Assembly (NCBI GenBank): GCA_049699855.1
Contig: JBNAWM010000050.1
Coordinates: 1-10,674 of the forward strand
Source of the DNA: Candidatus Cryosericum sp.
GTDB taxonomy: Bacteria > Caldisericota > Caldisericia > Cryosericales > Cryosericaceae
Reading direction: 5' to 3'
DNA length: 10,674 bases
The notes below the pieces were generated by a model. The model worked only from the letters and a program-made list of their open reading frames with translations, was not told where the DNA came from and did no database searches. This document shows, one piece after another, positions 4,101 to 10,114 of the stretch (positions are counted from its first letter, which is position 1; each line of letters opens with the position of its first letter). The translations under genes and the position numbers were made by a program.

Positions 4101-4913
4101 ATGGAGCACCACATCGGATCTGCCACGTTGATTGGGCGCGGCCGCATCGCAGAGGTCTACACCTGGAGCGACGAAACGGTCCTCAAGCTGTTTGTCCCGG
4201 GCTATCCGGCCAGTCTGGTCCAGCAGGAAGTCGACGGCACACGGGCCGCCAACGCGGCCGGCATTCCGTCGCCTCGCCTGCTCGACGCGATCACCGTGGA
4301 TGGGCGCGCAGGGCTGGTCATGGAACGCCTGACGGGAGCAAGTATCCTGACCCTGCTGGGCCGAGAACCCACCCGCGTGACGCGCTATGCCCGCATCTTT
4401 GCCGAACTGCAGGCACGCATCCACGGGCGCCAGGCACCGGGGCTGACATCCCGCCGCGAGGACCTGGCGCGGAGGATCGCCCGTGCTGGCGTTCTGGCAC
4501 ACGTCAAGGGCAATGCACTGGCAACCCTCGAGCGTCTGCAGGATGGCGATGCCTTGTGCCACAGCGACTACAACCCGGACAACGTGCTGATGACTGCCGG
4601 GGGACCCTTTGTCATCGACTGGTCCTTCGCCACAAAGGGAGTCCCGGCATCCGACGCGGCGCAGACGGCGTTGCTGCTGCGAATCGCCGATGCACCGCCG
4701 GGGTCGTTCTCGGTGGCGTGGGTTGAACGCGAAACCAGGGATCGTTTCTACCGGGCATGGCTTGCTCGCTACCGGGAGCTGGCACCCGATGCAGGGCAGG
4801 CGATGTGGGCCTGGCTGCTGCCGGTGGCCGTAGCGCGCCTCGCAGACGACATCCCCAGCGAACGGCCGCGGCTTCTGACCCTCATCGAGGAGCTGCAGCA
4901 GAAGCGTCAATAA
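4101..4913 (+). CDS. APH/choline-kinase-family phosphotransferase (270 aa)
   Basis: ATG 4101 after GGAGG. LIGRGRIAEVY (Gly loop), VLKL, LVMERL, catalytic loop CHSDYNPDN and metal-binding IDW. Substrate unknown. Confidence 0.88.
   Translation: MEHHIGSATLIGRGRIAEVYTWSDETVLKLFVPGYPASLVQQEVDGTRAANAAGIPSPRLLDAITVDGRAGLVMERLTGASILTLLGREPTRVTRYARIFAELQARIHGRQAPGLTSRREDLARRIARAGVLAHVKGNALATLERLQDGDALCHSDYNPDNVLMTAGGPFVIDWSFATKGVPASDAAQTALLLRIADAPPGSFSVAWVERETRDRFYRAWLARYRELAPDAGQAMWAWLLPVAVARLADDIPSERPRLLTLIEELQQKRQ
4860..4905 (+). repeat. Left copy of a 46-bp direct repeat (attL-like), inside the phosphotransferase 3' end
   Basis: gaacggccgcggcttctgaccctcatcgaggagctgcagcagaagc matches 7231-7276 at 44/46 (differences 4862 a/7233 g and 4878 a/7249 g). 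Confidence 0.95.
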
Positions 4914-5444
4914 TACAGGGAGCCCTTTCCCACTGCATAGACCCTAACAGTCTTTCGACTCTTTTCGTGTCGCAGGATCACTAGCACGCAACCGTGAACA
5001 TATAGTGAATGATTCCGTTCAGACTTCTGGTGCCATCTTCGTTGTATGGGTGAGGGGAATAATGGTCGGCGGTGGCAGGGATATGAGAGAGGGTGTCGGG
5101 CACAAGCTGGAGGAAAACCAGAAATCGTTACCGTATCGTTACTTTCGGTTTGTACAATCTCAGTTGCTAATGAAAGGAGGCACGGGTCATGAAGGCGTAG
5201 AAAGAACGGACGTGAACCCTCGCTGCCGGGAATGTGACAGACGAGAGAACGAGGAAGAAGACACAATGTACTCAAAGAACTTGTAGATTCTTAGGGAAGT
5301 AAACAGGTTTGCGGGGTGATAAGAATCGCTCAAAATGGGTATGAGTAAAACCGGGGCGAGAGCTCCCTCGGAGAAGCTGCGATAAAAGAACTTCTGGTGT
5401 CTTTGAATGACCAGATGAAACTATGATCAAGGAGGGAACAGACA

Positions 5445-6836
5445 ATGAAGGACACATCTAAAGTGATCAGCATACTTTTGGTTTTTGCCCTTCTATTTGC
5501 CTTAACCCCATTTATCAAACCTCTCAATTTCTCTGACTGTTCTTTGCTCGCGGTCAGTATCAACCCTTCAAAGAAATATGCAATTGACTTTGACTTGCCT
5601 CACCTGAAATCAGTTGATACCCTGACAAGAGAGAGCGCAAACAACAATATCACGAAGACCTTCAACTTCAAAGATGGAACAATTGACTACACGCGCCCAT
5701 CTGTAGAAATAGAACAAAACTCTCTTGGTAACTCTTACTCAGGCCTAATGAGATATGGCAACATCCAAACAAACTTTGAAAGAATAATTCTCAAATTCAA
5801 ACATGAAAACTCACCTACCACAGATACCCTTCTTGAGGGACGTCTCACTCTCAATAGCAAGCCCCTCAGAGCCAATATCTTCCTCATGGAAAACGGTTCA
5901 CTTCTTCAATATGCTTCAGTAACAATCCAGGATGAAATGGACAACGTGCTTGCAATGTTCACCCATGGAAAAGCGGACGAAATGCGTCAACCGAAAGATG
6001 GTTCAGAAGATGCCGAGAGTACAGATAATGGCAACCAAGAAGCAATGAGTACCCTTTCAACCAATTCGTTGTCTGCTAATAGTTCTGAAAGGGTATTGAG
6101 GTCCTATGTAAAGGACATGACAATCGGAGACCCCTTCGGAGGAACACCCCCAATAACCGTCCACGCGCTCAGGACTGATGCGATGGCCCAGTATCCATTT
6201 TCAACAAGTATTGGCACGTTGGATCTTCTGTCATTAAGAAGCTGGGGCTTCAGAAAGCCTCTTACCGATGCTTACAGGGCTTTTTATCAAAATGCAGGAT
6301 ACAATCCTTCTCTCATCTATGTCGATTTCGGTGCTTCCTCTGTAGACCATATCATCGAAACAAAATTCCAAAGTGGAGCAGATGCTACTTATAGTTTCCC
6401 TCAGCCATCTGGATATACTACCGTTCCTCTCGGTGTAAGTTTCCCTTTGTACGGCTATGGAAGCATAGGCTATACAATCGGGATGCCAGTTGGTGGTGTA
6501 TCAAAGGCTTGGACGTATAAACAAACCGCAGGGAGTATTCCAGGCATGAACAATTACGCAGAACTTGCCGCAAACTCCTTCTACAATTGCACCTGGAATG
6601 ACAATAGCCTGTTCTGGCCTGACAATGACACAAACCCCTATATATCCAACCCGGGAAGCAGTTTTGGTGGCTTCTACTCACATAGTGTCTTCTTGCTCCA
6701 GGCAACTGGCCCTGGCTTCACCGCTCGCTATACTTCTTCGTATCTGTACAGCATTGGGGTCGGCATACTTGGCCAGGGGGCCGATATCTACTATCTGTCG
6801 TCCTATAACACGTTCGATCCAGTAACACTTGATTGA
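5445..6836 (+). CDS. Hypothetical exported protein, 463 aa
   Basis: Long ORF in AT-rich DNA, AAGGAGGG 8 nt upstream, N-terminal basic plus hydrophobic signal/anchor (MKDTSKVISILLVFALLFALTP). No family recognised. Confidence 0.85.
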   Translation: MKDTSKVISILLVFALLFALTPFIKPLNFSDCSLLAVSINPSKKYAIDFDLPHLKSVDTLTRESANNNITKTFNFKDGTIDYTRPSVEIEQNSLGNSYSGLMRYGNIQTNFERIILKFKHENSPTTDTLLEGRLTLNSKPLRANIFLMENGSLLQYASVTIQDEMDNVLAMFTHGKADEMRQPKDGSEDAESTDNGNQEAMSTLSTNSLSANSSERVLRSYVKDMTIGDPFGGTPPITVHALRTDAMAQYPFSTSIGTLDLLSLRSWGFRKPLTDAYRAFYQNAGYNPSLIYVDFGASSVDHIIETKFQSGADATYSFPQPSGYTTVPLGVSFPLYGYGSIGYTIGMPVGGVSKAWTYKQTAGSIPGMNNYAELAANSFYNCTWNDNSLFWPDNDTNPYISNPGSSFGGFYSHSVFLLQATGPGFTARYTSSYLYSIGVGILGQGADIYYLSSYNTFDPVTLD

Positions 6837-6905
6837 TGTTCCTGAGACATTGAGGTAATATCAAGCCTTCTCCAAGAAGGGGCAGGCTTTTCCAGGAGGT
6901 TCTTC

Positions 6906-7202
6906 ATGCAAAAACAACTGAGAATCAAGAGCGTGTCGGTTGAAGACTTCACGAAGTTTGGCTTTTGGGTTGGCATCGTCTTGGCTATTGGTGGAGATAT
7001 CGCCATTCTTATGTCTCCGACTTCAAGAGTAACAGCAGGAATTCCCTTCTTCACGTATAATGCAACGCGTTCCTTTTCAGGCATTCTCATCTTCTCTGTC
7101 CTCGCAGTCTTGTCATCAACATTTGACCTCCTGCTTGCTGCACTATTCTCAAACCTTGTCCTCAAACTCTCAAAGGGGATTTCAATAGAAATCGAAGAGT
7201 AG
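6906..7202 (+). CDS. Small two-TM membrane protein, 98 aa, DUF3566-like
   Basis: AGGAGG 6 nt upstream. Pattern LRIKSVSV..F.K, two hydrophobic helices, then SNLVLKLSKGISIEIEE resembles DUF3566-type proteins (from memory, not searched). Confidence 0.75.
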   Translation: MQKQLRIKSVSVEDFTKFGFWVGIVLAIGGDIAILMSPTSRVTAGIPFFTYNATRSFSGILIFSVLAVLSSTFDLLLAALFSNLVLKLSKGISIEIEE

Positions 7203-7230
7203 AACGACCACAAGAGACACTTTCAAAGGA

Positions 7231-7276
7231 GAGCGGCCGCGGCTTCTGGCCCTCATCGAGGAGCTGCAGCAGAAGC
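7231..7276 (+). repeat. Right copy of the 46-bp direct repeat (attR-like)
   Basis: gagcggccgcggcttctggccctcatcgaggagctgcagcagaagc; 44/46 identical to 4860-4905. Confidence 0.95.
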
Positions 7277-7287
7277 ACGGCGACTAG
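7231..7287 (+). pseudogene. Displaced 3' fragment of the phosphotransferase gene
   Basis: Reads ERPRLLALIEELQQKHGD* (TAG 7285-7287), versus ERPRLLTLIEELQQKRQ* in the intact gene. Confidence 0.75.
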
Positions 7288-7304: not shown

Positions 7305-7332
7305 TTGCTTCCGCGCAACTCTCCAGTACAAT
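7305..7332 (+). promoter_or_regulatory. Putative sigma70 promoter for the P-loop gene
   Basis: TTGCTT-16 nt-TACAAT, 80 nt upstream of ATG 7413. Confidence 0.55.
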
Positions 7333-7412: not shown

Positions 7413-8132
7413 ATGGACAAACTGGATGTGATCCTGCTTATCGGCCGGCCCGCTGCCGGCAAGAGCGAAACCATTGACTTTCTGAAACACCTGACCGATG
7501 CCGAGCGATTGCGAGACTATCACATCGCACCGTTCGAGGAACTGGACGATTTTGTCTATGTCTGGGAGACATTCGAGAACGATGGGATCCGCGAACACAT
7601 GGGACTGCCGCGCCGGGACACGGATGCGAACCTGTACTTCCTCGACGACCGCATCTGGGACTTCTTCATCGAGCGCATTGACCTTGACCTCCGCAAGAAG
7701 CTGGCGCGGGACCCTGCGTTTCTCGATGGACACACGGTGCTGATGGAGTTCGCGCGCGGTGGCGAACATGCCTTCTCCAATGCTTTCCAGCATCTTTCCG
7801 ACGATGTCCTCGCGCATGCCGCCATCCTGTACATCGACGTCTCCTTCGAGGAGTCCCTGCGCAAGAACCGGCGGCGCTATCGTCCGGACCAGGCGGACTC
7901 GATCCTGTACCATTCGCTCGAGGATGCCAAGATGGAACGATACTACAAGGTCAACGACTGGGCTGACCTGTCCGGGGGACGCGACGACGGGTTCATCTCC
8001 GTGGGGGAGCACCAGGTCCCGTTTGCAGTGTTTCACAACGAGCCGGAGAAGACGCTGGATCCTCAGTTGCTGGGCGATGCACTGCGGGATGTGACCGAAC
8101 GACTTGCCAAGCTCTTCACCGCAAAAGGTTGA
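7413..8132 (+). CDS. Uncharacterised P-loop NTPase, NMP-kinase-like (239 aa)
   Basis: GGAGG at 7404-7408 supports ATG 7413 (or 7410) rather than 7305. Walker A VILLIGRPAAGKSE at the N-terminus, VLMEFARG (Walker B-like), and ILYIDVSFEESLRKNRRR (lid-like). Host-like codon usage. Confidence 0.85.
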   Translation: MDKLDVILLIGRPAAGKSETIDFLKHLTDAERLRDYHIAPFEELDDFVYVWETFENDGIREHMGLPRRDTDANLYFLDDRIWDFFIERIDLDLRKKLARDPAFLDGHTVLMEFARGGEHAFSNAFQHLSDDVLAHAAILYIDVSFEESLRKNRRRYRPDQADSILYHSLEDAKMERYYKVNDWADLSGGRDDGFISVGEHQVPFAVFHNEPEKTLDPQLLGDALRDVTERLAKLFTAKG

Positions 8133-9755: not shown

Positions 9756-9826
9756 GGCGGCATGACGCCTTGGCGCAACAATGTGAAGACGTCGGTACCT
9801 GGTACCAAAGGGATTCACAATTGGCG

Positions 9827-10114
9827 TTTTCCACAGAGCCTGTCAATTATGTGGAGAAGTGGTGCAACAGCACAGTGCGAGATGGTGGATAACCTGTCAG
9901 GGGCTGTGGAAAACGCCAGGGGTATCCGTTTCTCAGGGTCAGGCCCTGAACTCCGCATGGGAGGCTGATTTCACAAAAAGATGCCCCTGGCTGATGCGAA
10001 GCGGTCAAAAACGTGCGATGGTACGTCAGGCAACGCGAAATCCTCTCTCAGGGCCACTTTTCGTTACAACGTTTTGGAACGTCACTATCCATGATGCTTT
10101 ACGGGTTTTCCACC
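9827..10114. promoter_or_regulatory. DnaA-box cluster
   Basis: Against TTWTNCACA: perfect at 9827-9835 (+) and 9905-9913 (-); one mismatch at 9850-9858 (-), 9884-9892 (-), 10106-10114 (+); several two-mismatch sites nearby. Confidence 0.7.

Follow-up and report, generated by a model that had tools for sequence, protein, structure and literature searches.

A low-GC gene cassette between direct repeats of a kinase gene end in Candidatus Cryosericum, compared with insertions that carry a long target duplication

Insertion of genes together with a long duplication of the target site was described in a survey of restriction-modification genes (Furuta, Abe and Kobayashi 2010; PMC2853133). Here, we compare with this and related systems a 10,674-bp stretch from the genus Candidatus Cryosericum (assembly GCA_049699855.1, contig JBNAWM010000050.1; hereafter the window), in which a cassette of two low-GC genes lies behind the end of a phosphotransferase (kinase) gene, between two copies of a 46-bp direct repeat. 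In the sections of the survey used here, duplications of 45-47 bp are listed, including two Haemophilus influenzae cases of 44/46 (Table 2), with no other mobile genes reported. The insertions often lay where a gene starts or stops, and the species concerned were mostly naturally competent. The survey tied the long target duplication to restriction-modification genes and its mechanism is poorly understood; the window adds an example without such cargo.

Three further systems are close. Neisseria minimal mobile elements (Saunders and Snyder 2002, as presented in PMC3787668) are variable genes between conserved flanks, with an organisation that may be shared by distant genomes and absent from close ones. 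In laboratory experiments, trimmed incoming DNA was re-circularised and integrated by a single crossover, with duplications of 109-950 bp in 56/60 clones (PMC3240628). This route and homology-facilitated illegitimate recombination (HFIR), which joins one homologous end with a 3-10-bp microhomology, were also put forward to explain orphaned 3' ends at effector loci, according to the parts of PMC3240628 and PMC5361080 consulted. Finally, cis-mobilizable and integrative mobilizable elements (CIMEs and IMEs) at the 3' ends of housekeeping genes are flanked by 8-60-bp direct repeats that take in the target gene's end (PMC5704250, as far as cited here).

The best fit for the window is an insertion accompanied by a long target duplication at a spot where the insertion breaks no gene. 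The window shares the features by which such cases are recognised in the cited text of PMC2853133, namely a duplication longer than 30 bp, an insert shorter than 20 kb without another mobile element, a unique repeat outside tRNA genes and a single-copy empty site in a relative. It is also similar in its gene-end position that keeps the gene intact, in its lower GC content and in a host with the competence genes ComEC and DprA. It differs in three respects. The survey requires R and M genes and the cargo of the window is not restriction-modification, so the idea put forward there, that a property of such genes drives insertion, is inapplicable here. The repeat of the window ends 8 nt before the end of the stop codon, and the same cargo is also found at the same site in distant species, in a replacement form.

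Repeat, insert and empty sites

The window is one entire contig of an assembly of 157 contigs. The repeat copies at 4860-4905 and 7231-7276 are identical at 44/46 positions, with a start-to-start distance of 2371 bp and mismatches at 4862/7233 and 4878/7249. They bracket an insert of 2325 bp (4906-7230) with a GC content of 45.4% versus 58.1% genome-wide. The long repeat around a low-GC insert, first noted in a preliminary description, is thus confirmed by repeat scan and GC content. Only these two copies were found when all 157 contigs were scanned with up to 14 mismatches tolerated (blastn E = 1e-13), and among the eight spaced repeats of at least 30 bp in the genome the kinase-tail pair encloses the spacer of lowest GC. 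The repeat is kinase coding sequence and not a tRNA site, and an Rfam search of the stretch returned no family and a single match at chance level. The left copy reads ERPRLLTLIEELQQKRQ and the right copy ERPRLLALIEELQQKHGD; via the left copy the kinase ends in QQKRQ*, and the right copy forms an orphan tail ending QQKHGD*. The features of the locus are as follows.

4101-4913, plus strand: target gene, an intact APH-family phosphotransferase of 270 aa ending QQKRQ* (PF01636, E 7.8e-21; orthologues 58-79% identical at 18 fetched loci)
4860-4905, plus strand: left repeat copy, the last 15 conserved codons of the kinase, of recipient type (repeat scan and register table of tails)
4906-4926, plus strand: first 21 bp of the insert, of which 4906-4913 supply two codons and the stop (in-register homology to the 21 bp that follow the kinase tail in a second carrier genome, G017)
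5039-5249, plus strand: dispersed, putative leader/promoter module with a tandem YGTWAC-N5-YGTWAC box at 5126-5142 and TACAAT at 5153-5158 (profile matches)
5445-6836, plus strand: cargo 1, 463 aa, with a hydrophobic N-terminus, a predicted beta-barrel and a predicted C-terminal beta-sandwich (folds and structure searches)
6906-7202, plus strand: cargo 2, 98 aa, hydrophobic, DUF3566-like, conserved partner of cargo 1 (synteny; weak PF12089 match)
7222-7235, plus strand: right end of the sequence that carriers G017 and G018 have in common with the window; the final five bases overlap the right repeat as a microhomology joint (alignment)
7231-7287, plus strand: right repeat copy (to 7276) and orphan native tail ending HGD* (repeat scan; an empty-site contig of sequencing run X6 continues through it)
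7305-7332, plus strand: promoter-like site of the P-loop gene, TTGCTT-N16-TACAAT, conserved and left untouched by the insertion (16-bp spacing at 12 relative loci and the window)
7413-8132, plus strand: downstream host gene for a P-loop protein of 239 aa, a conserved neighbour of the kinase (weak AAA_33 match, E 0.027)

In order to survey the site, 22 further genomes of the genus were searched and their loci fetched, giving 23 genomes together with that of the window (G000); all are incomplete assemblies, which often lose mobile elements. In 15 of the 22 the kinase and the P-loop gene are adjacent (16 loci, gaps of 34-137 bp), two (G017 and G018) are filled with the same cargo and five are uninformative. 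The same cargo is thus present in 3/18 informative genomes, the window included. In G017 it lies at the same site on one contig, and in G018 the locus is split over two contigs. No different cargo was found at the kinase end among the fetched loci; the cargo-swapping hotspot that had been suggested was not seen, all three filled genomes holding one and the same cargo. One genome, G016, has two divergent kinase-P-loop loci (L029 on C34 and L030 on C109) that are placed apart in the tree, the second being a second allele or the product of a mixed bin. A metagenome scan with the kinase confirmed 1/451 candidates, a 43% relative, and returned no close locus. In the portions of the literature naming Cryosericum that we consulted, nothing on this locus was found.

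We then compared contigs from 4 of the 20 sequencing runs that contain part of the stretch (X1, X5, X6 and X10). In run X6, one contig matches the flanks of the window at about 94% identity and omits exactly 2371 bp; it represents an exact empty allele. In run X1, whose host flanks are also about 94% identical, left flank, insert and right flank are tiled by three contigs that break at the repeat. In run X5, one contig crosses the right junction. Exact empty and filled alleles therefore coexist in the clade of the window, and together with the adjacent genes in most congeners this bears out the earlier claim of a true insertion. The insert of run X1 differs from that of the window at 39 positions in 2389 bp, the flanks at 158 in 2650 bp (Fisher p 3.6e-16). 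Hosts about 6% apart carry an insert differing by only 1.6%, so the additive form moved at least once more, and the insert postdates the split between the two hosts. Read depth in run X1 was 316 over the insert and 313 and 342 over the flanks; there was no excess, and these depths are not readable as copy number. Run X10 contained cargo pieces 98% identical to those of the window, on a contig that departs from the window sequence after 7234 and has a different right end.

These contigs also bear on an assembly artefact, a danger that the preliminary description had raised itself and that has in its favour the fact that the window is a single 10.7-kb contig of a fragmented assembly. The same arrangement recurs independently in runs X1 and X5, whose hosts show about 94% identity, and G017 holds the same cargo at the same site on one contig. 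With these contigs and the G017 locus, misassembly is excluded, and we give an artefact practically no weight.

Junctions and horizontal spread

The preliminary description read the two repeats as attachment sites, with an element-borne tail that restores the kinase reading frame. The tails of the relatives speak against this. Both copies in the window carry window-specific bases and differ from the tail of every relative at 6/46 positions or more. In G017 and G018, the left copy is of each host's own type and the kinase is host-type up to AA(G/A)C. Among empty-site relatives, the residues that follow QQK are freely variable (R*, H*, G*, TP* and longer), and restoration of the frame needs no explanation. 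Since neither copy is element-type and the insert adds only two codons and a stop, at freely varying positions, there is no element-borne tail. A repeat at a gene end alone does not demonstrate attL and attR.

The right copy, taken earlier as the native end of the kinase, runs on into the native spacer and promoter, which upholds that assignment. The P-loop promoter-like site has a 16-bp spacer in every matched case, although a generic promoter scanner did not list it. It lies downstream of the insertion and is intact, and the kinase is undamaged as well; insertion is therefore tolerated here.

The extent of the duplication can be read from the mismatches. Sequence common to the window and to G017 and G018 ends at 7235, inside the right copy, which assigns the mismatch base at 7233 to the end of the insert itself. 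The joint in run X6 connects 4862 to 7234, with 15 ambiguous bases, and at the first mismatch the empty allele would match the left copy, at the second the right copy. The second mismatch (4878/7249) is probably a later point change, and the host sequence that was duplicated probably spans 43 bp (4863-4905), to which a short microhomology adds. These readings replace the earlier idea that the two mismatches stem from an attachment site of a related strain. The contig ends of run X1 would imply identical repeat copies over 4866-4905 if words of 31 letters were used for assembly; the repeat-copy variants of runs X1, X5 and X6 were all read from contig ends.

The first 21 bp of the insert are identical to G017 at 14/21 positions (binomial p 1.7e-4, post hoc), to G018 at 11/21 and to the empty-site genome G011 also at 11/21.

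In G017 and G018 the same cargo sits in a different setting. Over the 125 bp before the P-loop gene the two genomes are 88% identical, versus 56% for G017 and empty-site G001 and 44% for G018 and G011; their spacers share 44-59% identity with their own kinase neighbours. The kinase of G017 resembles that of G001 all the way to its end, matching at 56-62 of 62 positions in each segment compared. Because the two share a foreign spacer behind kinases of their own type, a block from the kinase end to the P-loop start was probably swapped in. There was no clear recombination tract within either coding flank of the two genomes. Neither has an intact right copy; behind the cargo, about 60 nt look like a kinase tail that has decayed (p 0.001 and 0.007 in a post hoc shuffle test that left out the first 5 nt, the two sequences not being independent). 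This replacement form would behave like a minimal mobile element. As in the accounts in PMC3787668, the organisation is shared by distant genomes and absent from close ones, and the foreign spacer reaches up to the next conserved gene. It is different in that only one cargo was seen at the site, the flanks are 20-30% divergent and the form in the window is additive, with a duplication.

In order to follow the history of the cargo, synonymous divergence (dS) was examined together with single-gene FastTree phylogenies rooted on G032. Between the window and G017 or G018, dS was 0.14-0.29 for the cargo and 0.98-1.67 for four flanking genes; between G017 and G018 it was 0.20 for the cargo and 0.57-0.99 for host genes. 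In the kinase tree, G017 is sister to the empty G001 (support 1.0), G018 groups with the empty G011 (0.95) and the window forms a separate branch. As the cargo dS is far below that of the flanking genes in three separate kinase lineages, the cargo moved horizontally, in agreement with the mobility claimed before. It crossed between carriers whose flanks are 20-30% divergent.

Vertical inheritance with repeated loss was considered as well. Here, the repeat would go back to a tandem paralogue of the kinase that has decayed, with gene conversion keeping the copies alike; such a paralogue was named in the preliminary description. The decayed tail-like stretch after the cargo in G017 and G018 would suit it, as would the first 21 bp of the insert, which diverge at a host-like level. 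It is largely refuted by the cargo dS, 4-8 times lower than that of the four flanking genes. The carriers are not sisters, most congeners are empty and no further kinase sequence lies upstream of the right copy. We regard it as very improbable.

Beyond the genus, cargo matches were found in 8/93 genomes of the phylum, and all eight loci of a species-wide scan were in Caldisericota. Five genomes of Caldisericaceae hold one to four copies of the cargo pair each (26-44% identity), in DNA of 31-44% GC. None of 70 viral candidates carried the cargo. Judged from this distribution, the pair is a Caldisericaceae module.

Routes of insertion and the search for a mobility enzyme

No recombinase is encoded in the insert, as stated before: neither cargo open reading frame matches a Pfam family at E <= 0.1, which also leaves them without a restriction-modification family. 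The genome of the window has one tyrosine recombinase, single copy of its kind in most congeners and located between a formyltransferase-like gene and murA (read from translations); no serine recombinase was found in it. In the incomplete assembly of G018, neither a tyrosine nor a serine recombinase was found. The element with a cognate integrase assumed in the preliminary description was not found in the 23 incomplete genomes; three extra G032 integrases and one partial G005 match were left out of this search. No integrase lies at the kinase end in the 18 informative genomes. The 23 genomes hold no second tail copy outside the locus, beside an integrase or elsewhere (18 pattern matches, comprising 16 kinase tails or the right copy and two ABC ATPase genes). 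Two integrase regions of G010 and a broken one of G017 have no likeness to the insert or the tail.

Several candidates were rejected. The insert has no terminal inverted repeats (5/20 matches between its ends), no transposase and no short duplication, which speaks against an insertion sequence (IS) or composite transposon. A structured recombination site was dismissed as well: the 46-mer contains a 7-bp inverted repeat that is absent in relatives, and it folds no better than shuffles (z about 0). Cas1-type insertion does not fit the insert size and the missing terminal repeats, despite two cas1 genes in the genome. One of these is a reverse transcriptase-Cas1 fusion of 808 aa on contig C40 (L080:79-2502), and the second stands alone on C62.

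The absence of restriction-modification cargo, the exact empty and filled alleles within one clade and the replacement form in distant species together lead us to argue the footprint from general recombination of the host, at a place where nothing breaks. We favour, with moderate confidence, a cassette that was inserted with a recipient duplication of about 43-46 bp and that arrived and spread by host recombination acting on incoming DNA, not by a dedicated integrase. The gene pair would have come from a low-GC relative in Caldisericaceae, been fused to a leader from Cryosericum and become lodged behind the kinase. IS1634 perhaps helped in this original lodging, and an older tail copy may have been left behind and since decayed. 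The form in G017 and G018 would have arisen when crossovers at the two conserved coding edges exchanged the native spacer for the block that reaches from the kinase end to the P-loop start. In the clade of the window, a fragment carrying one kinase tail of 43-46 bp may have closed into a circle at the GA(A/G)CG microhomology, which is found at the right joint of the insert. Such a circle could have entered an empty allele by a single crossover, giving the additive form; its precise loss would also be possible.

This sequence of steps resembles the single-crossover and HFIR routes, which combine one homologous end with a microhomology joint, and the single-crossover route likewise duplicates part of the target. 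In the sections of PMC3240628 and PMC5361080 drawn on here, HFIR differs in normally deleting recipient DNA, and these routes were shown in E. coli and competent model species.

A number of observations weigh against the recombination route. A crossover over 43 bp is short for RecA. The stretch is also under the 109-bp minimum of the laboratory duplications, which range from 109 to 950 bp compared with about 43-46 bp here (PMC3240628, as cited above). No back-going joint of a 2371-bp circle was found in the contigs of the four runs. There is no kinase mosaicism in the window, no stretch being closer to G017 or G018 than to empty relatives. A donor combining a window-type kinase with a G017-type right end was not found; the cargo of run X10, with its different right end, hints at such a donor. 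Mobile elements may have been missed in the incomplete assemblies. Finally, three lineages share the exact base of the left joint, which follows AA(G/A)C, and G017 and G018 keep bases of their own lineage to within a few nucleotides of it. Such precision is unexpected from ordinary homologous recombination at 20-30% divergence and expected from a site-specific enzyme.

The last point leads to the alternative of a CIME-like remnant or satellite. Its repeats would be attL and attR, and a recombinase acting in trans, from a helper element or a housekeeping Xer-type enzyme, would excise a circle and reinsert it at the kinase end elsewhere. Besides the shared left joint, the right boundary of the common sequence is the same, the precise empty site exists in run X6 and the length of the repeat fits the range of 8-60 bp stated for tyrosine-recombinase IMEs (PMC5704250, in the part cited). 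The contig ends of run X1 would further imply a change beside the 5' part of the repeat, as a crossover within it could leave. Set against this are the missing integrase at the site, the missing second tail copy and the small recombinase complement of the genome and of G018. No dif-like motif was found, the folding of the repeat does not surpass that of shuffles, and neither copy is of element type. Moreover, G017 and G018 gained the cargo recently and yet have no intact right copy. As far as PMC5704250 is used here, the window differs from a CIME or IME in being without its own integrase and, among the 23 incomplete genomes, without a related integrase-bearing element that could be found, in having no element-derived repeat copy and in the spread of its cargo through lineages without an intact right copy. 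We consider a recombinase in trans unlikely, though it is the most serious of the alternatives.

A different origin is suggested by the G017 locus, in which 1.05 kb between kinase and cargo contain an IS1634 transposase remnant (L021:10130-11190; 43% identity to an annotated IS1634 transposase, E 4e-16) and the ends of two dispersed repeats. The first 226 bp of this segment are common to G018. One of the dispersed repeats is present up to roughly twelve times in G004 and G010, in many cases at contig ends. The window is without the 1.05 kb and has a short shared CCT at the join. An IS1634-associated insertion could thus have put the cargo behind the kinase once, and the window clade could have gained it by one-off break repair, in which two template switches at microhomologies copied 43 bp of recipient DNA, without a circle and without repeated additive mobility. 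The recipient type of both copies and the microhomology at the right joint are in line with this. The additive form in hosts 6% apart, with an insert divergence of only 1.6%, is not, and the insert contains neither IS sequence nor terminal inverted repeat; the G017 remnant has no match in the genome of the window. This alternative departs from the favoured host recombination mainly at the circle and single-crossover step; we judge it less probable than a recombinase in trans.

Cargo, leader and neighbouring genes

The family of cargo 1 is small, with 17 clusters among 1.84 billion representatives. The model of cargo 1 has a small N-terminal beta-barrel (about residues 40-175) and a C-terminal beta-sandwich, which reached a pLDDT of 68 when modelled alone. 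All matches of this domain listed by Foldseek were of the hemolysin/leukocidin family (best E 6.8e-6, TM 0.20-0.34, rmsd 15 A or more). VIA-align also placed this family first (Z 9.3, 194 residues, rmsd 8.8), with pilin and Ig-like domains at an equal Z, and the atlas gave it as a lead only (0.82). Cargo 1 is thus similar to the beta-pore-forming family (PF07968) in its C-domain fold matches and signal-peptide-like start. It differs in its extra N-terminal barrel, its low TM-scores and the lack of a sequence match to PF07968 or to a solved member. Cargo 2 follows homologues of cargo 1 at 6/11 distinct Caldisericaceae loci; 3/8 members of its family match PF12089 weakly (best E 0.024), and the atlas assigned it as DUF3566-like (0.89). 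From these models, there is about an even chance that the product of the cassette would be a secreted and perhaps pore-forming protein, made together with a small membrane partner. A reasonable guess is that the pair is an effector with its immunity partner.

The leader profile matched eight places in the genome, including 5039-5249. Seven of the eight precede a long open reading frame, each with a signal-peptide-like start as judged by eye, and 6/7 genome-wide matches of the tandem box lie within the leader module. No Rfam family was found for the leader. The tandem box presumably resembles OmpR/WalR-type operators. Leader copies precede other low-GC genes, one of them for a C39-like peptidase, and an Amidase_6 gene lies in one such cluster. 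The leader may mark a regulon or a shared recombination platform. Among the 14 loci inspected, no other leader-linked cassette with short gene-end repeats was evident.

As a side observation, about 230 bp of the leader recur before unrelated low-GC genes for secreted proteins on contigs C24, C47, C66 (three copies), C74 and C88 of G000 (leader loci L037-L040, L043, L045, L047 and L048). The linked genes are often paired with a lipoprotein or membrane gene, and often lie near a repetitive extragenic palindrome-like sequence or a gene for an extracytoplasmic function sigma-like factor.

The cargo pair and the shared leader point to unstudied secreted effectors in a little-known phylum. A wider picture, which we put forward as speculative and rather doubtful, would be a recombinase-free traffic of secreted antagonism cassettes in Cryosericum. 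These would combine a shared, activator-boxed leader with unrelated effectors, each followed by a partner. The present case would be an undescribed two-domain protein of hemolysin fold with a DUF3566-like immunity partner, jumping a species divergence of 20-30% to the same base in two forms. If this were true, insertion with long target duplication would reach beyond restriction-modification genes, and DUF3566-like proteins would get a testable role.

Two further places in the window were recorded. On the minus strand at 1660-2583, two genes upstream of the kinase, lies a lipoprotein-like gene of 307 aa with an Ig-like domain. It is 72% identical in G012 and about 40% in G031, G011 and G009, and from this comparison appears to occupy a second variable slot. 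At 9790-9920, in a long non-coding stretch after a PALP gene, a 24-bp inverted repeat (9822-9845 / 9895-9918) adjoins a motif that resembles dispersed repeats on contigs C33 and C70 of G000.

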